64,000 nucleotides of DNA from an uncultured Anaerolineae bacterium (GTDB taxonomy: Bacteria > Chloroflexota > Anaerolineae > VGOG01), in the NCBI GenBank assembly GCA_964390805.1, contig CAYMKL010000019.1, forward strand, positions 9,352-73,351. The letters run 5' to 3'. How positions within the stretch are numbered: position 1 is the first letter of the stretch; every line of letters starts with the position of its first letter. Of this stretch, positions 10,760-60,022 are shown piece by piece. The notes beneath the pieces were generated by a model. The model ran no database searches. It saw nothing but the letters and a program-made list of their open reading frames with translations, and had not been told where the DNA came from. Made by a program: the position numbers and the translations under genes.

Positions 10760-13700
10760 ATGGCGATTGTTGAACTCTCAATGGTAATTGGCGCCATCGT
10801 TGAGATGGGCGTCGAGGGGATTTGGGAGAAGGCCAAGCGCCGCGAGGCAGTCATTAGGGCGCTGAAGAAGTTGGGGTTGCAGCCAGATGCGCCGCCATCT
10901 GATTTCGACGGTGTGTACGCTTACACGCTGGTCGAGTATGGCGTAGGCAAGCCCAAGCCAATCCTCGACTTCTTCCGCCACGAGTTCATCCGTGACGCCT
11001 TCCGCCAATCGTTTGAAAAACGGGATGCTTCGATTCTGAGCGAAGAGGCAGAGAGCCTGATCGAATGGCACAAGATCGGTGACGACCTACGACGGTTGGA
11101 TGTAGACCCGCGGCAGGAGTTCGCTCGCTTCACCGCTGTGTTCAATGAGATCGTTGACCGCACGCGCACACCGGCTGAGGTCAAGCGAGACCAGAAGCTG
11201 GATGATATCTACGGTGACTTGCATCAAAAGACAAGTGATATCATCGAACGCCTGGAAAAACTCGACGAACTGGGCGAGATTCGGGCAGAGCTCAGACGGC
11301 TGGCACAGAGTTATCGGGCGCGCCAGTTCATCGTCGCACCGACTGGCGAGAAGCTCAAGGTATTCATCAGTTCCAAGATGATGGAATTACGCGACGTACG
11401 TGAGATTGTCGCCAAGGCCCTCGATGACAGAGGGATTGATGCCTGGGTGTACGAAGCTCATGCTGGCGCGAGGCCGGAAGGCGTGGTGGAGACCTCATTC
11501 AGTGAGGTAGAGGCTGCCGATATCTACGTGGGGCTGTTCTGGCAGAAGTACGGTGAGGTGACGGTGCAAGAGTATCGCCGTGCCCGCGCCCTAGACAAGC
11601 CGTGCTTTGTCTACATCCGCGACAAAGACCTCCAGCGTGAAGAGGAATTGGAGGATTTTCTGCGGGACGAGGTCTACGACTTGCGAAAGGGTGTCACCTA
11701 CGACTACTTCGACAGCGCCGTAGAATTGGGCGAGCAAGCTGCCGGTGACATTATGGCCTGGTTGGTGCGGCGGCACCGCGAGATGACGGCTGAGATTCAG
11801 GAAGCTCGCGTGTCTGTGGACGAGGTCGCCCGTCTACAAGGCGAGGTCGATCGCCTTCAGGCTGCCAGTCGCGAACCTCTGCCACAGGGCACTGCTGTAG
11901 ACTATCTAGCCCAGCAGATGCGGACCTGGTTTGAGACCTTAGGTTACCGCTTTGAGAGTCACGACGTCCGGGCCAAAGACTACTTCGAGTGGGTCATCAA
12001 TGTCCCAGCGCGGCGGGGGTATGACCGCATCTTTGTACTTGGCGTCGAGGGCGAGGCCGAACTTGCCCACATTGCTGCCCTACGCCACGCCGTGGACGAG
12101 CAGGGGACCGATGAGGGATGGCTAGTGGCTGCACGGCGTAAAAGCCAGGCTGTCTGCGAAGAAGTTGAAAGAACAGAGAACCGCGATCTCTTCTGCTACA
12201 CCTTCGACGAACTGCTGGACGAGGATGCTGACTTCAGCGGCTACCTCGACTGGCTAGAGGTCGAGGTCAAGCGCCGGGGTATTGACACCACGTATGTTCC
12301 CTTGGCGTGCACCAAGGAGGAGGTCGATCCGGATACCGGGCAAAAGATAGGAGAAAGTCGCTACGACGAGCACAACGGCTGGATTGACGGCTACATTGAC
12401 CGGTGGGTAGATGATCCGTCCAAGGAGCACATCTCCATCCTGGGCGAGTTTGGCACTAGTAAGACTTGGTTCGCGCTACACTACGCCTGGAATGCCCTAC
12501 AGCGCTATCGCGAGGCCAAAGAACGGGGCGTCGAGCGCCCTCGCCTGCCCCTGGTCATCCCCCTGCGCGACTATGCCAAGGCAGTCAGCGTCGAGTCCCT
12601 CTTCTCCGAGTTCTTCTTCCGCAAACATGAGATACCTTTGCCCGGTTACTCCGCCTTTGAACAACTCAACCGTATGGGCAAGCTGGTGCTCATCTTCGAC
12701 GGCTTTGATGAGATGGCCGCTAAGGTGGATCGCCAGAAGATGATTAACAACTTCTGGGAGTTGGCCCGGGTAGCGGTGCCGGGGGCCAAGGCCATACTCA
12801 CCTGCCGTACCGAGCACTTTCCCGAGGCCCAAGAAGGCCGCGCCTTGCTAAGCGCTGAATTGCAGGCCTCCACTGCTAAGCTGACCGGCGAGCCGCCTCA
12901 GTTCGAAGTGTTGGAACTGGAGAAATTTGATGACGCCCAAATCCGCCAGGTGTTGTCGCTCCGGGCTGAGCCCGCCACTGTGGAACAGGTGATGGGCAAT
13001 CCCCAACTCCTTGACTTGGCCCGCCGGCCAGTGATGACCGAGTTCATCCTGGAGGCTTTGCCCGATATTGAGGCGGGCAAGCGAGTGGATCTGTCGCGCA
13101 TCTACCTCTACGCCGTGTGGCGGAAAATGGAACGGGACATCAAAGCGGAGCGAACTTTCACCTCTCTGGCGGACAAGCTCTATTTCCTGTGCGAGCTGTC
13201 GTGGGAGATGCTCTCTACCGATGAAATGAGCCTCAACTACCGGCTCTTTCCTGACCGGATTCGCCGCTTATTTGGCCCCGCCGTGCAGGAGCAAAAGGAC
13301 CTGGACCACTGGCACTACGACATGATGGGCAAGACCATGCTTGTCCGCAATGCCGATGGTGATTACACTCCGGCTCATCGTTCCCTGCTCGAATTCTTCG
13401 TCGCCTTCAAATTCACGGCAGAACTAGGCCTCCTGGCCCCCGACTTTACCGTCCTTGCTCAAGCTCAGTCCAACCTGGATGATTCACTCGCGGCCCAAAA
13501 ACACACCTGGTCCGACTACTTTCGGCGGTGGGGGGACAAGGACGGGCAAATCGTGAGAATTGCGCCACTCTCGCAGTTTGAGATGGAGCCAACTGAGAAT
13601 TTGAGAGAAACGGTAGGGAAGCAGAGGTTTGCACCTGCAATCCTGGATTTGATGAGAGGTATGTTGGAGGAAAGTGAGCTGTGGAAGAGATTCGAGGTTA

Positions 13701-46895: not shown

Positions 46896-49800
46896 TTATT
46901 CCTCCTCCTGCTGTTGTTGAGCGGGGAGGCGGAGTAAGAAGATAGTTCTTTCTTCATTGCTCTCCAGGACAGAGACTTCACCGCCATGTTCCCGCATAGT
47001 GGTACGTGCACCCCACAGACCCAGTCCGTAGCTCTGTTCCTCTTGTGCTACTTCTTGACGAGCGGAGAATAGGTTAAAGATCTCCTCCCAGTGTTCGTGT
47101 GGAATTGGGGGGCCATGATTCATAAAGGCCAATTCGACAAAGCCATCCCCTGCAAGCTGGCCATCAACTCTTATCTCGTCTAGGTCGATTCCTTCCTCAC
47201 TCATACGTCTTCGAGTAAACTTGACAGCGTTGCTCAGCAACTCTACGATGTAGGTGATGATCTTTTGCACTTGAACGTTGACAGCCGGCAAGTCTGGAGC
47301 GAGATTAGCCTGAATGTCCATATCTGGCTGTTTGCCCAAAGCAGCTAGCGCTTCGTTCAACACCAGATTTATGCTAACTTTGGCTTTGGGTTCAGGCCGG
47401 AAAGGTTTGAACAAATCCTCGGCCGCCTTGTTGATGCCTTCACTATTGAGAAGGATATTGTCGAGATCCTCCTGCTGCTGTGGCGTCAAGTCCTGCAATT
47501 GCTGGATAAGCCGGAGGGCACAGGAACGGATGATACCTGACAGGTTCTTTGAGTGGTGAGCCATCTCTGCCGTAACTAGGCCAACGGCGGCATTCACCTC
47601 AGCAGCCAATGCCTTTTCCTGAGCTTCTCTTAGTTGCCGTGTCCGCTTCTCAACCCGTTGTTCCATTTCAGTGTACAGTCTGGCATTCTCAATCGCAACC
47701 GCTGCCTGGTTCGCCAGTAGATGAATCGTTTCTCGGTCCGATTTGGAAAAACCGCGAGATTCGAAGAAGTTCACATACAGAAGTCCAACAGTCCTCCCTC
47801 CAAATATCAAAGGAACTCCAGCAAATGACTTAACTCGCTTGTTCCTAATGAAAGTAGGTTTGACGCGCGGTTCCTTCCCTACATCTTCGGCAAAAACGGC
47901 TTCCTGTGTCCTTGCTATGTGAGCGCTAAAGCCAGTATGGCCCGGAATTGATGGGGCAACCTCAACTTTGCCTCTTCGTATCCCGCTCTCAAATTTATCT
48001 TGTTCAGGATCGTATAGGAATAGGGTGGAGAAGTCTGCGGATGTGGTCATATTGGCATTTTCGACAACTGAACCAAGTACCTCCCCTAATTCGAGCTGTG
48101 AAGTGATCTTCACACCTATCTCCTGAAGACCAGCTAGTTGCCGCGCCCTCCTGGTCTCTCGATCCAGTAGTCGTGCATTCTCAATCGCCACCGCCGCCTG
48201 GCTGGCCATCGTCTCGAGAACTCGTAAGTCATTCTCATCATAGGCATCTTCTTTCTCATAACTCTGAATGCTGATTAGCCCTATGACTTTTTCTGCTTGT
48301 TTCTCTCGATCCCAGACCCTCAGCGGAGTACCAATCCAAGACTTGGTAGCGATTGCCTCGGACAACTGAATACCACGTTCCTTTGCCCACTTCCACACAT
48401 TACCTCTCGAAATCTCGGCTTCTCCTTTATCTATCACATATTCAGTCAATCCATACCTGTACTCTCCTCGTCTACGTGGACGGAAATCTTTGTGATCAGC
48501 TTCAACCTTTTTGCCGGCATCATAAGCAAGCGGAAAACTCACCCCATCTTTATCCTCATCGTAAAAAGCGATTTGGATGTTTCGGACATCCATGAGCTTT
48601 CCAGCCTGGGTGTGGATTTCTTCCAATATCTCATCAATGCCCAGACTACTCACTGTCCGGCCGATCTCGGTCAAGACCTCAAGTTCCCTAATCCTACGTT
48701 CAAGATTCTGATAGAGCCTGGCGTTCTCGATGGCGATGGCTGCCTGATCCGCAAAAAGCTCCAAGAGCAGCTTGTCATTATCAGAGAAATGATGAGGAAC
48801 GGTCAGGTTTACATACAATACGCCCACAACGTCTCCCCCACTAATAAGCGGCAGATAGGCAACCGATTTCATACCCAGGGCCGAGATGTCTTCACGGACT
48901 GCGGGGCCTCCATCAGAGGGTGTGGCCACGTCATTTCCTTCTAGATAGCGAGGGAGCTTGGTCCGAACTACATAGCAACTTGTGCCGTCGGGACGCGGAA
49001 GACGATCTATCCATTCTTCCATCACCCCGGTAGCTATCTGAGGTCTAAACTGATCTGTCGTCGAATCGTACAGCCTGATCGCGCAAGAGGCCTTGTGGAA
49101 GATATCACTGAGGCTCTTTACGATCAGATGCGAGACCCTCTCAAGATTGGATGGTTCAGCAGAGATAGCAGTTGTGACTGTCTGAAGCTGTTCGAGCTGT
49201 GTCGCCCTCTCATCCAGCTCTTGGAAAAGCTGGGCGTGCTCAATAGCAACAGCAGCCTGATCTGCAAGTGCGCGCAGTAAGGCAAGTTCTTCCTCAGTGA
49301 ACTGACGTACGATGATATCATTCAAATAAAGTACACCGGCCGCCCTCTCACCTGCCGACTTGAGGGGAGTACCTACAAAAGACCTGACCCCCTTCTCCAC
49401 AACCTCGGGGTTTGCTCTTGTGTCCACGTGGGTGTCTGGCACAACCCTCTGCTCGCCCTTCTCAATGATAAGGCGAGTGTACCCTTGTTCAGAAATACGT
49501 GGCGCGGGATGCCTGAATTCCTCAGGATATGCATAACTACCAACAATCCTCTCCCCCGAACTGTCAATGACATGCACTACTCCCGACTTTGTCTTTGTCA
49601 GACGCATAGCACCCTCAACAAGTGAGGGCAGAATCTTATCGAGTTTCAAGGCCGCGCTGATCTGGGCACTAATCTGTTGCAGGAGGCTCACCTCATCCGC
49701 ACGATCTCTCAACCCCTGAACTAGTCGTGCATTGTTGATGGCAATAGCTCCCTGGTTGGCAAGAACCTCGATCCTCTCCCGCAGTTCGAGGTCGGTGTCA

Positions 49801-51809
49801 AAGTCGCACCTCTGCCGATAGCCCACGAACATAACCCCTAGAACTTCCTCGCCGACCTTCATGGAAACTGCTGCTGAAGAAATGACCCTCTCCCGTACAA
49901 CGAAGCGTTCTTGGGGCAGCTCCTCGCGAGGGAAATCCCAATCACCAGCCAACACCGCGTGCTTTTGCGCATCAGAAGCGTATACCTTCCCCCCAGTATG
50001 CGCAATCTGGAAGACGACATCGTCCGGGAAGACTTGCGTGGGTATGAGATGAGGAAATCTTCGGTCGCCCACCATAATGGGCGGAAGGGCAAAATCCTCT
50101 CTATCGGCCTGATATTGATACAAATCAACGACGTCAGCCCCCAGTACCTGAATAGCTGTATTGGCGATTTGCTCGAGTGTTTCCTGAAGCACCTCAGGCG
50201 ATTCTTGCAGAGTAGCCAACGATTGCCCCACCTTGTTCAGCCGTTGGATCGTCTGGAGCCGTTCGGAATTCTGTATGGCCACACCAGCCTGGCTGGCAAA
50301 GGTGCCGAGGAGATCAATCTCCCAGGGAGTAAATTCTTCCCTCTTGGTCATACTGTAAACACTCAAGGTTCCCACAGCGCGTTCTGGCCCAGCCAACAAG
50401 GGAACAGCCAACATGGACTGCCATCCCTCCCTCGTCGCCTCCTCCTTTTTCTGAAAACCAGGATTTGCCTGGATATCCAGAACCTGAATAATCCTCCGCT
50501 CGCGAATAGCCTTGCCGGTTACGCTGTGGCCCAGATCTAACCTGGCCTCCTGAGCGTACTCGATACTTATCCCCCGGGAAGCGATGATTCTTGCCTGATC
50601 CCCCGGCTCGTCCACCCGCCACATCGACACTGGGCAACGAGTGAGCCGATGCACAGCATCCACAATATACTGATAGAGGTCCACGGCACCGCCAAGGGTC
50701 TTCTCGCCAATCTTCTTCAAACTTTCCAGTAACTCAGCCCGTTCGATGGCCACTGCCACCTGGTCTGCCAGGGCTATCAACAATTCCACGTCGGCCGCAG
50801 AAAAACAGTTAGGCTCTAGACTGTCTACGTTGATCACACCCAGAGCTGTGCCGTGCGACATGATCGGCACCGATACCAACGAGCGAATGGGAACACCACC
50901 GGCGATAATATCAACGAAATGTGTATCCGTCTTTGTGTCCCGACAAACGTAGGGTTCGCGATTCCGCGCCACCCAACCCGCAATCCCTTCGTCCGGTGCG
51001 CCAGGCGTGAAGGTACGCTCCGCCTTATCCACTGGTACGAGCCCGCCGACACGGGCACGGAAGTGCAATCTGCCATCCTCTTCCATTAGCATCAGAGACC
51101 CATCTCTGGCTCCGACCAAATCTACTGCTCGTTGGAGAATCCTGTCCAGCACCTCTTGTAAGTCAACAGCAGCATCCACATCCTTCTGGATATGTTGAAG
51201 CAATTCGGAATACCCCAGCGCTCTCTCCGCCGTCTGGTATTTCCTGATGCTTTCCACCAAGTAGCGGAAGATAGCTGTAAGCACAAGCAGAACAGCCAGA
51301 TTGGTAAACAGCGAAACAGGGTTGATCAAAGCGAGCCCAGCAGCCTCTGACAGCGATGCGAGAAAGTATAAAACAACGACTTCGCCGTAGATCCCCCACA
51401 TCATGCCCCGAGGGAAGTAGAGGGCCGAGGCAAACAGCGGCCACAGGTAGATGAACCAGAAATAGCTCTCTGCACCACCAGTCATCCAAAGCAAGGCACT
51501 TCCAAGAAACACCACGATCTGAATCCGCACCATTCGAAACTGCGATGTTCCATACAACTCTCTCTTGGTCCGCGAGAATACTTCCCGCACAACAAGGTAT
51601 ACCAGGCAGGACAATAGCCACCCAAGAACCCAGGGGCCTCTCGCTCTCACCTCTGACGAGACGAGATAAGCCGCGTAGACAAATAGCAACAGGAACCACC
51701 CTATGTAGGTCACCGAAAAGTGAACCAGCCTCCACTCTCTCCCCTCTTCTGCCGTACTGAGGGACTTTAGGAACACTTTCGGGCCGGTATTGAAACGATC
51801 ACTTGTCAT
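46896..51809 (-). CDS. Membrane-anchored multi-GAF sensor histidine kinase (1637 aa; about 6 N-terminal TM helices, about 8 GAF domains, HisKA + HATPase_c)
   Basis: Repeated GAF signatures (e.g. LANQAAVAIENARLY recurring 7-8 times); C-terminal H-box AEMAHHSKNLSGI and ATPase boxes LSNAVKFT, GLGLWGARTTMREHGG. Confidence 0.85.
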   Translation of the reverse strand: MTSDRFNTGPKVFLKSLSTAEEGREWRLVHFSVTYIGWFLLLFVYAAYLVSSEVRARGPWVLGWLLSCLVYLVVREVFSRTKRELYGTSQFRMVRIQIVVFLGSALLWMTGGAESYFWFIYLWPLFASALYFPRGMMWGIYGEVVVLYFLASLSEAAGLALINPVSLFTNLAVLLVLTAIFRYLVESIRKYQTAERALGYSELLQHIQKDVDAAVDLQEVLDRILQRAVDLVGARDGSLMLMEEDGRLHFRARVGGLVPVDKAERTFTPGAPDEGIAGWVARNREPYVCRDTKTDTHFVDIIAGGVPIRSLVSVPIMSHGTALGVINVDSLEPNCFSAADVELLIALADQVAVAIERAELLESLKKIGEKTLGGAVDLYQYIVDAVHRLTRCPVSMWRVDEPGDQARIIASRGISIEYAQEARLDLGHSVTGKAIRERRIIQVLDIQANPGFQKKEEATREGWQSMLAVPLLAGPERAVGTLSVYSMTKREEFTPWEIDLLGTFASQAGVAIQNSERLQTIQRLNKVGQSLATLQESPEVLQETLEQIANTAIQVLGADVVDLYQYQADREDFALPPIMVGDRRFPHLIPTQVFPDDVVFQIAHTGGKVYASDAQKHAVLAGDWDFPREELPQERFVVRERVISSAAVSMKVGEEVLGVMFVGYRQRCDFDTDLELRERIEVLANQGAIAINNARLVQGLRDRADEVSLLQQISAQISAALKLDKILPSLVEGAMRLTKTKSGVVHVIDSSGERIVGSYAYPEEFRHPAPRISEQGYTRLIIEKGEQRVVPDTHVDTRANPEVVEKGVRSFVGTPLKSAGERAAGVLYLNDIIVRQFTEEELALLRALADQAAVAIEHAQLFQELDERATQLEQLQTVTTAISAEPSNLERVSHLIVKSLSDIFHKASCAIRLYDSTTDQFRPQIATGVMEEWIDRLPRPDGTSCYVVRTKLPRYLEGNDVATPSDGGPAVREDISALGMKSVAYLPLISGGDVVGVLYVNLTVPHHFSDNDKLLLELFADQAAIAIENARLYQNLERRIRELEVLTEIGRTVSSLGIDEILEEIHTQAGKLMDVRNIQIAFYDEDKDGVSFPLAYDAGKKVEADHKDFRPRRRGEYRYGLTEYVIDKGEAEISRGNVWKWAKERGIQLSEAIATKSWIGTPLRVWDREKQAEKVIGLISIQSYEKEDAYDENDLRVLETMASQAAVAIENARLLDRETRRARQLAGLQEIGVKITSQLELGEVLGSVVENANMTTSADFSTLFLYDPEQDKFESGIRRGKVEVAPSIPGHTGFSAHIARTQEAVFAEDVGKEPRVKPTFIRNKRVKSFAGVPLIFGGRTVGLLYVNFFESRGFSKSDRETIHLLANQAAVAIENARLYTEMEQRVEKRTRQLREAQEKALAAEVNAAVGLVTAEMAHHSKNLSGIIRSCALRLIQQLQDLTPQQQEDLDNILLNSEGINKAAEDLFKPFRPEPKAKVSINLVLNEALAALGKQPDMDIQANLAPDLPAVNVQVQKIITYIVELLSNAVKFTRRRMSEEGIDLDEIRVDGQLAGDGFVELAFMNHGPPIPHEHWEEIFNLFSARQEVAQEEQSYGLGLWGARTTMREHGGEVSVLESNEERTIFLLRLPAQQQQEEE

Positions 51810-54602: not shown

Positions 54603-54631
54603 TTGACATATGAGCTTTTTGCCAGTATAAT
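54603..54631 (+). promoter_or_regulatory. Perfect-consensus sigma70 promoter (TTGACA - 17 nt - TATAAT) about 285 nt upstream of the SIR2-STAND gene
   Basis: cTTGACAtatgagctttttgccagTATAATag read directly. Confidence 0.55.
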
Positions 54632-54917
54632 AGCTTAGCGCGACAGGAATGATCCATCCATTTACCCAGAAATAGAGAAGCGTGATGAACATTCGCGAAG
54701 ACCCTTTCGAAGCTCCTAAGGTGTACTGCGAAAGTCAGCAGAGTCAACTTGGTTGGCTTTTGTGGCTTTCTAACGGGCACCGCTGTTCGCCTAGTGCAGG
54801 CGATGGCTGGTGCCCGATTGTCTTTGGCGAGTTAGCGAGGGGTTAGGCTCGATTAGATAAGCAAGAGGAACTTCGAGTATCCTGACGACCTTGCTATTGT
54901 CCCAGAGAGGATATATT

Positions 54918-57032
54918 ATGGCTCTCAGAGATGAAGTAAAGCAACTGATAACCGATGAATTGCTGCCCCGGATTCGTGCGGATCGCTGTATTCTCTTTGC
55001 AGGGGCTGGATTGTCCTACGAGGCTGGTTTGCCAGGTGCGAGCGATCTGGCAAAGAGACTATGGCAAGCGTTGCCGGAACAGGAGAGACCAGACCTATAT
55101 ACTCTGAGCGAGGTGGCCGAGATATACCTGAAGCACCACACCAAACAGGAACTCGTGGATTTCGTAAAGGAGACCTTGCAGCCCATTAGAGGGCAGGTTT
55201 TGGATACCACTACCTTTCGCCTGATCGCTCACATCGCACACCTCAATAGAATCATCATTACCACCAATTGGGATACCTTGTTGGAGGAAGCCATTCAAGG
55301 GGTAACGAAAGTACCTCCAGCGGTTGTCGTGAGGGATATTGACATGGGGAAAGTAGCTGGTGCCCAACACATCATCTACAAAATCCACGGCTCCTGGGAT
55401 GCACCTGGAACTTTCGTGCTAACCGAGAGGGACTATCGGCTCAGATACATGGAGCTGTTTGATCCCAAGTCGCTGATTATGGCTCAGGTACGCACTCTTG
55501 TTGCCGGCAGAGTTATCATCTATGTGGGGTATAGTCTGCGGGACGAGTATTTTGACGAACTGCTGCGGCAAATCAGATTTGCTTTAACCGATCCGCGAAC
55601 AGGAGAGTTCTTAGGCCGGACAAGTTACTTAGTCGTGCCTGAAGAGCCCGAAGAGGAAGCGAGAAGGCGCTTACGGGGGCTACGCATCAAGTGGGTCAAT
55701 GCTTCAGCGAGAGACTTCTTCCAGTTCACCTTCACCGAAACCTCCGAATTTGTCAACCGGCAGAAAGAGCTTGGGATAATACGATCACTAAAAGAACCTT
55801 ATACCGAGATATGCGGCGGTGCGGGCATTGGTAAAACGAGGCTCTTACGTGAATTGGCCTATGAGTATAAAAAAGATAACTGGTTCAATGTGTTCTACAT
55901 AGATTTGAGAAAGGGGACTTCCTTTGATCTTATCAAGGAGCAAAGCAAAGTAGGAGATATGAATGAGCTATCTCAAAGGGGTGGTCTGTTCATTGCAATG
56001 GATTCCCTCGATAGAGCAGGGGAATTTGACGATGTGAAAGAATTCATTCTGAGGGTGCACAGGCCGGAGATCTCTACTCAGCGCATCGTCTGGGCAACCA
56101 GATTTAGTATCCTTGATCAATTGTCGCCACCTGTGAAATTCCGCGCTTCTACGTATCCTCTGAGCCCTATGCTTACATCTTACGTGGCGGAGATGGTCAA
56201 AAACCATGTAGAGCTCATCGGAGGTGAGGTATGGACTCAGGCCAGATATGAGAGACTGGCCAATGAGATCATCACACTGACCGGGACCGGGCATCCGGGA
56301 CTGGTCGTGGAGGTGCTTCGCATTCTGGGCAAGGCAACGCCCCCCTTTGAGGTGGCTTATTTACAGGCAAAGCGTCCGGAAATTCTTTACGCCCTCAGGA
56401 GCAACCTTCGAAGAGAGGTTTTTGGAGAGGAGAATCCGGAAATAGAGGAGGAGTTGAAGCCAGTTACCAGGCTGATGGAGAACATTTTCTGTGCGGTGCG
56501 TGGAGTGACCCAAGGTATGATTGCCGGACTGTTCAAGGATGGTAAAGTGGCGACAGTGGATTTCCAAGATGCCGAGGGCATTTTCAAGGCATTATTGAAC
56601 ACTCACTTGTTGGACAGAGGGGCCTATCCGCTTCACAGCATTGATGCAACCGTTCGATACGTCCTGGCTTTATGCCTGCAAGAAGATAATCGCCAGCGAT
56701 TTGAAGAGATAAATGATTGGTGCATTGGCTACTTTTGGGAGGCAGTACAAAGTAGCAGGGAAGATGTGCAGCGCGCCTATGTCCGGGAGTGGCTCTTCCA
56801 TCACATGACGCGACTAGATGCGGAGACGAGCGCACAAGCAAGATTGGACTTGCTGAAGGATGATTTAAGGCAGATTACGCTACGAAGCGCAATGGGAGAG
56901 AGAGCAAAGGAGACGCTCATCAGAGAGACGACTGGTGATGAGGAACTAAAGAGTTTACTAGTGAAGCACCTGGAAGTCGAACTACTCTCGCTATTACTCC
57001 AGGAGCTTACCAAGCTTACGGTACAGGGCTAG
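54918..57032 (+). CDS. SIR2-like (SIR2_2 family) N-terminal domain fused to a STAND/AAA-type P-loop NTPase
   Basis: SIR2_2 motifs CILFAGAGLSYEAGLPGASDL, IIITTNWDTLLEEA, IYKIHGSWDAPGTFVLTERDY, VIIYVGYSLRDEYF; Walker A ICGGAGIGKTRLL, Walker B GLFIAMDSLDRAGE. Confidence 0.8.
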   Translation: MALRDEVKQLITDELLPRIRADRCILFAGAGLSYEAGLPGASDLAKRLWQALPEQERPDLYTLSEVAEIYLKHHTKQELVDFVKETLQPIRGQVLDTTTFRLIAHIAHLNRIIITTNWDTLLEEAIQGVTKVPPAVVVRDIDMGKVAGAQHIIYKIHGSWDAPGTFVLTERDYRLRYMELFDPKSLIMAQVRTLVAGRVIIYVGYSLRDEYFDELLRQIRFALTDPRTGEFLGRTSYLVVPEEPEEEARRRLRGLRIKWVNASARDFFQFTFTETSEFVNRQKELGIIRSLKEPYTEICGGAGIGKTRLLRELAYEYKKDNWFNVFYIDLRKGTSFDLIKEQSKVGDMNELSQRGGLFIAMDSLDRAGEFDDVKEFILRVHRPEISTQRIVWATRFSILDQLSPPVKFRASTYPLSPMLTSYVAEMVKNHVELIGGEVWTQARYERLANEIITLTGTGHPGLVVEVLRILGKATPPFEVAYLQAKRPEILYALRSNLRREVFGEENPEIEEELKPVTRLMENIFCAVRGVTQGMIAGLFKDGKVATVDFQDAEGIFKALLNTHLLDRGAYPLHSIDATVRYVLALCLQEDNRQRFEEINDWCIGYFWEAVQSSREDVQRAYVREWLFHHMTRLDAETSAQARLDLLKDDLRQITLRSAMGERAKETLIRETTGDEELKSLLVKHLEVELLSLLLQELTKLTVQG

Positions 57033-57043
57033 GAGGGAGAACC

Positions 57044-60022: not shown

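Follow-up and report, generated by a model that had tools for sequence, protein, structure and literature searches.

A widespread pair of paralogous STAND NTPases with a radical-SAM partner resembles sensor/helper NLR pairs

The characterized antiviral STAND (signal transduction ATPase with numerous domains) proteins of bacteria (Avs, bNACHT) sense and kill as single chains. In a 64,000-nucleotide stretch of DNA from an uncultured Anaerolineae bacterium (contig CAYMKL010000019.1, positions 9,352 to 73,351; hereafter the window), these two functions appear to be split over two nucleotide-binding oligomerization domains (NODs), which are encoded by adjacent genes. The locus therefore raises the question of whether the two genes form a single system and, if so, of what kind. 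The genes concerned, named A and B below, and the gene that follows them are:

54918..57032, plus strand: gene 1 (A), 704 amino acids (aa), a SIR2 effector joined to a STAND NTPase core that lacks a sensor
57044..60022, plus strand: gene 2 (B), 992 aa, a STAND NTPase with a tetratricopeptide repeat (TPR) sensor and without an effector
60026..61150, plus strand: a radical S-adenosylmethionine (radical-SAM)/SPASM enzyme, 374 aa, the third conserved gene

Our results indicate that the pair and its radical-SAM gene represent a widespread, undescribed bacterial system, probably of the STAND-based conflict type, which resembles the sensor/helper pairs that nucleotide-binding receptors with leucine-rich repeats (NLRs) form in plants and animals.

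Conservation and ancestry of the A-B pair

Approximately 80 full-length proteins share more than 35% identity with the product of gene B, and those with a named source derive from metagenome-assembled genomes of Chloroflexota type (such as Anaerolineae and Thermoflexia). Scans of genomes and metagenomes provided 83 loci with relatives of gene B; these and all further surveys were based on metagenomic contigs and on our own calls of open reading frames (ORFs). A hidden Markov model (HMM) of the C-terminal ~400 aa of gene A, referred to as the A core, matched the same-strand upstream ORF in 77/77 of the loci that have one, and in loci extending 1.3 kb or more upstream of B a neighbour of gene A type was invariably found there (67/67). 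The two genes are closely packed: the median gap is 8 nt, it does not exceed 20 nt in 64/77 loci, and the genes overlap in 36/77. In the window, A and B are separated by 11 nt, and B is followed after 3 nt by the radical-SAM/SPASM gene.

The same linkage was observed when the search started from A. The A-core profile was compared with 1.84 billion representative proteins, after removal from it of a natural A-B fusion (P0098), whose B half had been aligned by MAFFT to the A core. The family obtained in this way (E<=1e-10) comprises 533 clusters at 50% identity. The loci chosen from it contained A proteins with trypsin, TIR, CHAT, metallophosphatase, bDLD1, caspase+SIR2, SEFIR/TIR or no N-terminal domain, and in all nine that were informative we found both a B-family protein (E 0 to 3e-35) and the family-specific radical-SAM enzyme (E 1e-50 to 1e-129). 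Wherever it could be checked, the linkage of A and B thus holds in both directions, down to B identities as low as 24%.

The fusion P0098 (1574 aa) contains a full A core at aa 19-427 (E 2e-62), followed by B at aa 540-1561. It lacks an effector, and its locus carries the same radical-SAM gene; this was the single A-B fusion seen in our survey of fused homologs, for which an earlier, preliminary description of the locus had called. The identity matrices of A and B are correlated (Mantel r 0.87, p 0.001), which we regard as supporting evidence only, since such a correlation is expected of co-inherited genes.

A and B are very probably obligate functional partners. The family is large, and the two-gene form is both its ancestral and its dominant state. 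The preliminary description had placed the two genes 11 nt apart, as our re-measured coordinates also do, and had proposed that effector and sensor are divided between adjacent paralogous STAND NTPases. This proposal is upheld by the linkage described above (67/67 and 9/9 loci). Gene A homologs that routinely occur alone, which would have spoken against it, were not encountered, a neighbour of gene B type being present in all nine informative loci.

The paralogy of the two NTPases required a separate analysis. In a pairwise BLASTP comparison of genes A and B, the alignment was restricted to 39 aa surrounding the P-loop (E 0.005), and the GGAGIGKT motif that they share is by itself a weak proof of paralogy, because nothing beyond the P-loop is aligned. 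We therefore compared profiles built from 40 cores of gene A type (set A2) and 41 N-terminal regions of gene B type (set A3), taken from the related loci. With hhalign, these matched at a probability of 99.5% (E 2.6e-22) over 355 columns with 15% identity, and the match spans the NTPase, helical and winged-helix parts. The gene A core profile also matches the half of P0098 that is of gene B type (E 5e-17). Judged from these profiles, the two cores are genuine paralogs, distant and old rather than recently duplicated. The common origin claimed in the preliminary description is consequently retained, and the possibility that the cores are unrelated is not borne out; in the direct alignment, similarity was confined to the 39 aa aligned by BLASTP.

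Domain architecture and interchange of effectors

Three parts of the two proteins can be delimited within the window:

54945..55697, plus strand: SIR2 domain of A (aa ~10-260), with the motifs TTNWD (N117) and KIHG (H157), of catalytic type
55725..56900, plus strand: A core (aa ~270-661), an NTPase, helical and winged-helix module, defined by our own HMM
58601..60019, plus strand: TPR solenoid of B (aa ~520-992), defined by Pfam TPR matches and by the helix pairs of the AlphaFold2 (AF2) model

In protein A, Pfam identifies SIR2_2 (PF13289) over aa 112-258 (E 3e-23). By sequence, the nearest solved relatives of this domain are the defence NADases KomC, ThsA and DSR2, and the TTNWD and KIHG motifs are retained in 11/12 SIR2-containing A homologs. 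The Walker A motif GGAGIGKT occupies aa 300-307 (K306; nt 55815-55838) and Walker B includes D362. The P-loop region gave STAND matches below threshold only (ATPase_2, nSTAND3, nSTAND5, NACHT), and in a profile search of solved structures the closest relatives of the A core were NB-ARC, Apaf-1 and PH0952. The AF2 model of A is of moderate quality (pLDDT 74, low at residues 485-574) and is all-helical beyond residue 418. Its top structural match, found with Foldseek, is the SIR2-STAND protein EfAvs5 (9jap, E 2.6e-13), together with the AVAST5 filament (9nc9); these are followed by DSR2, ThsA and KomC, the last of which aligns with the SIR2 domain at a TM of 0.80 and an rmsd of 3.3.

No repeat domains were found in A by domain scanning. 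The A-core HMM stops ~40 aa short of the C-terminus of the protein, and fewer than 90 aa extend beyond the core in 128/150 representatives of the A family; A therefore carries no sensor. Alignment to the HMM also revealed that the family retains the Walker A Lys (62/63), the Walker B Asp (62/63), the sensor-I Arg (61/63) and the Pro of the GxP motif (58/63). A regular-expression scan had suggested that several A proteins are devoid of a P-loop; the "inactive helper" that this would imply is ruled out by the Lys found in the HMM alignment.

Protein B opens directly with its NTPase, and no effector domain was detected in it by domain scanning. Its Walker A motif (aa 38-45) is identical to that of A; the remaining matches are TPR_12, TPR_1 and TPR_10 at aa 639-709 and weak ones to AAA_16, NACHT and NB-ARC. 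The AF2 model is confident (pLDDT 91.5, pTM 0.89) and shows a NOD and, C-terminal to it, a long TPR solenoid; among solved structures it is best matched by the STAND-TPR protein PH0952 (6mfv, E 2.3e-13, 828 aligned columns). K44, D143/E146, R191, P254 and the FLHDEMY motif at 372-378 are invariant in the B family (81/81). We take FLHDEMY, located in the winged-helix region, to be an LHD/MHD-type His motif. The solenoid is presumed to be the ligand-binding part of B. Its last third is the most variable region in the family (mean pairwise identity of 34%, versus 44-52% in the NOD), and some B relatives possess a ligand domain of periplasmic-binding-protein type.

The domain contents given in the preliminary description, i.e. 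SIR2, NTPase and a helical C-terminus without a repeat sensor for A, and an NTPase with the same Walker A plus TPRs and no effector for B, agree with the domain scans and, for A, with the AF2 model. Walker A/B, sensor-I Arg and GxP motifs are present in both proteins and constitute an NTPase switch of the STAND type; from these motifs, both NTPases look catalytically competent.

The N-terminal module of A is variable. In the 150 representatives we identified SIR2 (~30/150), Trypsin_2, CHAT, caspase+SIR2, TIR, SEFIR/TIR, Metallophos, bDLD1 or a further NTPase, a repertoire characteristic of conflict and cell-suicide systems. In locus L011, whose B is 67% identical to that of the window, A has a short N-terminal extension and lacks SIR2, and its upstream neighbour, which falls into one cluster with the L032 CHAT protein, is a putative CHAT gene. 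Comparison of this locus with the window shows that effectors are swapped even among close relatives.

Several related loci have a more complex organization. At L094 (3096-13936), the radical-SAM gene comes after an A fused to bDLD1 and a B into which a periplasmic-binding-protein domain is inserted, and genes for a bDLD1-trypsin and a second bDLD1 protein lie upstream. By analogy, this would be a textbook layout for adaptor-mediated effector recruitment; the Death-like adaptor logic in conflict systems was described by Kaur et al. (PMC8195603). In L032 (3181-5997) and L039 (1700-4498), A is ~935 aa long and has two P-loops, belonging to the A core and to a second NTPase of NACHT type, so that together with B three NOD modules are contained in two genes. 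A is preceded by a CHAT-domain protein in L032 and, in L039, by a gene that clusters with it.

In the clade in which B is 24-29% identical to that of the window, 1-3 additional NTPase-like paralogs are encoded upstream, some with an OmpR-type DNA-binding domain, and a GNAT gene and a long form of the radical-SAM gene lie downstream. Up to five NTPase-like genes in tandem were observed in L067 (1-10900) and also in L030, L036, L046, L054, L075 and L097: three weakly related paralogs of 400-630 aa (some with an OmpR-type winged helix-turn-helix), an A without an N-terminal effector, and B, followed in some loci by a GNAT acetyltransferase gene and then by the long radical-SAM/SPASM gene.

Two other types of neighbour recur upstream of A. 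A protein of ~200 aa is encoded just upstream of SIR2-containing A in L014, L016, L017 and L021 and is absent from the window; it matches, below threshold, the 8xMP family of octameric membrane proteins (PF24838, 28.5 bits versus a cut-off of 30). A HAD-family hydrolase gene directly precedes A in six loci (L040-L042, L053, L065, L068), one instance of the small-molecule or nucleic-acid enzymes that recur next to the core in some sub-clades.

The radical-SAM gene, the leader and the flanks

The product of the third gene (60026-61150) contains Radical_SAM (E 7e-16) and SPASM (E 8e-10) domains according to Pfam, and no NCBIfam family was matched at its cut-off (the best, AhbD, reached 114 bits versus 500). 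A homologous gene occurs within 3 kb downstream of B in 36/48 loci with enough sequence and is present in all nine A-based loci. The unit consists of at least three genes, and the radical-SAM enzyme, overlooked in the preliminary description, belongs to it. All complete copies (44/44) have the CX3CX2C motif and the SPASM motif CX2CX5CX3C; the long form carries an N-terminal extension of ~130-230 aa without a Pfam match. Among solved enzymes, it is nearest to BlsE (a decarboxylase that modifies nucleosides), SkfB and PqqE, a set that does not settle the substrate.

Most likely the enzyme modifies A, B or a small-molecule ligand, rather than serving a separate pathway. It might make or destroy a small-molecule ligand that is read by B (in some B relatives, a ligand domain of periplasmic-binding-protein type is present), or it might arm A or B by modifying them covalently. 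In the locus of the A-B fusion (L088), a protein of the Exo_endo_phos (EEP) family is encoded after the radical-SAM gene (11526-12488).

The operon is preceded by two elements and followed by two possible accessory genes:

54603..54631, plus strand: sigma-70-type promoter of the operon, TTGACA-17-TATAAT, with 12/12 matches to the consensus
54632..54917 (~285 nt), plus strand: conserved 5' leader, non-coding and probably structured, defined by conservation and predicted fold
61304..63037, plus strand: SPFH/Band-7 protein, 577 aa, identified by Pfam, a possible accessory
63051..63992, plus strand: TPR and Peptidase_S24 protein, a possible accessory; the start is placed as in L086 and the stop, at 63992, lies near the end of the window

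The promoter sequence is also kept upstream of the gene A homologs of L010 and L013, and a search inside the operon revealed no strong promoter or terminator. Gene A starts with the ATG at 54918, which is preceded by AGAGAGGA.

The leader is retained upstream of gene A homologs in L001, L007, L010 and L013, with insertions and deletions (indels) that are not multiples of 3. Its predicted fold is stable (z = -4.3), it matches no Rfam family, and covariation was weak and uninformative in a comparison of just 3 distinct sequences. It may represent a new cis-regulatory RNA of the operon. An ORF of 53 aa within it (54685-54846) was apparently conserved according to tblastn and was considered as a candidate precursor peptide of the radical-SAM enzyme. 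This candidate was rejected and the ORF was assigned to the non-coding leader, because the homologous DNA contains stops (in frame in L001) and indels of 2 nt and 4 nt. No other conserved small ORF was found next to the operon in a search that was not exhaustive.

The Band-7 gene occupies the same position in L001, L007-L012, L016 and L017, and the TPR-S24 gene follows it in ~9 loci. Taken together, the two genes have this placement in ~9-11 related loci. The order holds in the clade of the window down to 38% identity of B (L016, L017), and in the SIR2 clade both genes may have an accessory role. On the other side of the operon, a multi-GAF sensor histidine kinase of 1637 aa is encoded on the opposite strand (46896-51809, minus strand). 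It does not appear in the gene maps of other related loci, except for L086, which duplicates the DNA of the window, and is probably unrelated to the operon.

Mechanism, rival explanations and known systems

We consider it probable that the region is a conflict operon, most likely of an anti-invader or programmed-cell-death kind, built on an NLR-like STAND pair with divided labour. In the proposed mechanism, B would be the sensor, the TPR solenoid of which (or, in some relatives, the periplasmic-binding-protein domain) binds the trigger, and its NTPase switch (Walker A/B, sensor-I Arg, GRP and LHD motif) would open on nucleotide exchange. A, with a full NTPase switch, no ligand-binding domain and a SIR2 NADase at its N-terminus, would act as the executor. 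Activated B would recruit or nucleate A through NOD-NOD contacts, giving rise to a hetero-oligomer in which the SIR2 domains cluster, NAD+ hydrolysis is switched on and growth of the infected cell stops. In the case of EfAvs5, filament formation was proposed to activate the SIR2 NADase (PMC11897194). The domain content, paralogy, linkage, close gene coupling, fusion, motif conservation and effector exchange are observations, whereas we infer that A and B assemble (the hetero-oligomerization and sensing in trans of the preliminary description), which way the signal runs, that A is an active NADase and that the system serves in defence. The evidence for A-B contact is genomic and indirect, consisting of the fusion, the tight gene spacing and the correlated identity matrices.

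A more specific and less probable reading is that of a prokaryotic sensor/helper NLR pair in which the radical-SAM/SPASM enzyme is a third component, integral to the activation or the output of the receptor. If true, this would amount to immune signalling of a new type, in which radical chemistry is coupled to NLR-like oligomerization, and the sensor/helper division of plant and animal NLRs would have arisen independently, or earlier, in filamentous bacteria.

A pair of this kind could also operate without co-assembly, if B controlled A as a guard or inhibitor, a chaperone or a loader, and A, once released, homo-oligomerized like Avs5. A possesses a complete NTPase switch of its own, its best structural match EfAvs5 makes homo-filaments via SIR2 and NOD contacts, and tight linkage and fusion are predicted equally well for an inhibitor and its target. 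However, the motifs of B that are intact in 81/81 relatives would be unnecessary in a passive inhibitor, and the two NODs are paralogs, like those that assemble with each other in NAIP/NLRC4 and in the NLR pairs of plants, so that we consider this arrangement improbable. Slightly lower still is the probability that we assign to a locus for the maturation of a peptide or natural product, in which the radical-SAM/SPASM enzyme would be central, B would be a scaffold or regulator like HaaT, A would provide regulation or self-protection, and the S24 peptidase would process the product. In accordance with such a role, all of the associated radical-SAM enzymes have the auxiliary-cluster motif of SPASM domains, as is typical of maturases that modify peptides, the TPR region of B weakly matches, in NCBIfam, the cyclophane RiPP (ribosomally synthesized and post-translationally modified peptide) protein HaaT (37 bits) and AfsR, genes for GNAT, HAD and S24 peptidase proteins recur nearby, and the most distant operons encode NTPase proteins with an OmpR-type DNA-binding domain. 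The HaaT match has to be set against a cut-off of 1125 bits, however, and a precursor peptide was not found, the sole conserved small ORF beside the operon being broken in relatives. Moreover, the family has no conserved PqqD/RRE domain, transporter or leader peptidase, and the modules fused to the A core (SIR2, TIR, caspase, CHAT, trypsin, Death-like adaptors) fit cell suicide and not biosynthesis.

The two genes might, finally, be independent neighbours: A an Avs5-like protein with a cryptic helical C-terminal sensor, and B an ATPase of the MalT/PH0952 type serving the radical-SAM enzyme. Each indeed resembles a single-chain STAND protein (EfAvs5 and PH0952, respectively), and their pairwise similarity is confined to the P-loop. 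This explanation is already disfavoured, and we regard it as very unlikely, given that linkage held from A to B and from B to A in the loci open to such a check (with B identity down to 24%), the overlap of stop and start codons in 36/77 loci, the natural fusion P0098, and the termination of A within 90 aa of its core in 128/150 representatives.

Several observations nevertheless weigh against a co-assembling pair engaged in conflict. The catalytic motifs are intact in both NTPases, and each protein could in principle oligomerize alone. We know of no STAND mechanism in which a radical-SAM/SPASM partner has a place. In the clade with B identities of 24-29%, A has no effector domain, which hints at an ancestral output other than an N-terminal toxin. 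The genes flanking the operon in the window are ordinary ones (the GAF histidine kinase and a DDAH/ADI-type enzyme), no B relatives were found in viral contigs, and we saw no association with phages or mobile elements. Among 83 neighbour genes outside the core, PADLOC detected scattered single matches (mad2/3/8, LmuA, BrxL and Avs1a among them), a signal too weak for a defence-island claim, which we therefore rejected. The single exception to the linkage is P0005, a relative of gene A (38% identity) without B downstream on its 4.2-kb contig. At its N-terminus, this protein (L002, 9-3428) carries an additional AAA_35 ATPase and, ahead of the SIR2-A part, a stretch resembling TPRs, and its gene is followed, in place of B, by a gene for a metallo-beta-lactamase-fold protein; it is possibly an alternative sensor fusion.

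Annotation pipelines label these genes just as "ATP-binding protein" or "tetratricopeptide repeat protein", because the system is missing from PADLOC-DB v2, which has no model for the A core, for B or for the extra NTPases, and was not found in the searchable literature. The full texts searched, a body from which most subscription journals are absent, yielded no account of two paired STAND proteins accompanied by a radical-SAM enzyme. If confirmed, the system would offer a tractable bacterial model of a sensor NOD that activates a helper NOD, and could reveal new radical-SAM chemistry in immunity.

When compared with known systems, the pair could not be assigned to Avs, Avs5, nSTAND2 or the RiPP-type clusters, the defining features of each being only partly present. 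An NTPase switch of the STAND type is shared with Avs. In contrast to Avs, effector, NTPase and sensor are not united in one polypeptide (77/77 related loci are in the two-gene state), the best PADLOC-DB match of A is Avs4 with 12 bits (E 0.005), B has no Avs match, and no partner of the radical-SAM/SPASM type is known for Avs. The preliminary description had regarded the locus as a split form of a canonical Avs; with a two-gene form that is ancestral, and with a best Avs model of 12 bits, this view has to be abandoned. An N-terminal SIR2 NADase domain joined to a STAND NOD is found in Avs5 as in A, and the effector logic, namely NAD+ hydrolysis triggered by oligomerization, is probably common to both. 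The resemblance is limited to the fold of A, for which no sequence match to EfAvs5 was detected (phmmer E > 0.1). In Avs5, a C-terminal sensor forms part of the same single chain, whereas A ends soon after the NOD and the sensor is located on B. B itself shares with proteins of the PH0952/MalT type the order of NTPase, helical, winged-helix and TPR parts; those proteins, however, are single-protein switches without an obligate paralogous partner, an effector or a radical-SAM enzyme. Of the features of RiPP-type clusters, a radical-SAM enzyme with a SPASM domain is present and an adjacent precursor peptide was not found.

The division between recognition and execution is the arrangement that defines plant paired and helper NLRs and NAIP/NLRC4. 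In paired plant NLRs such as CHS3-CSA1 and in NAIP/NLRC4 of animals, linked paralogous NODs are likewise divided into recognition and death or signalling partners, and such sensor/executor pairs act as a hetero-complex (PMC11298796; reviewed in PMC10561179). The eukaryotic proteins differ in having leucine-rich repeat sensors and CC, TIR or CARD outputs, whereas the genes described here form a co-directional, translationally coupled operon with a radical-SAM gene. The resemblance appears to be a functional analogy, with shared descent at most at the level of the STAND superfamily.

The closest published precedent is the nSTAND2 operon (Kaur et al. 2021, PMC8195603), in which two adjacent genes also encode STAND NTPases, one of them with variable effectors, and the two proteins were predicted to form a hetero-multimer (PMC8195603). 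It is based, however, on a different NTPase family, nearer to CR-ATPases and DAP3, with an effector subunit whose NTP-binding motifs are eroded and with effectors that are mostly GT4 or HEPN (PMC8195603). In the system described here, the NTP-binding motifs are kept in both NTPases, whose nearest relatives are NB-ARC, Apaf-1 and PH0952; the effectors are SIR2, TIR, caspase, CHAT, trypsin and Metallophos; and the pair includes a TPR sensor subunit and a radical-SAM partner, neither of which has been described for nSTAND2.

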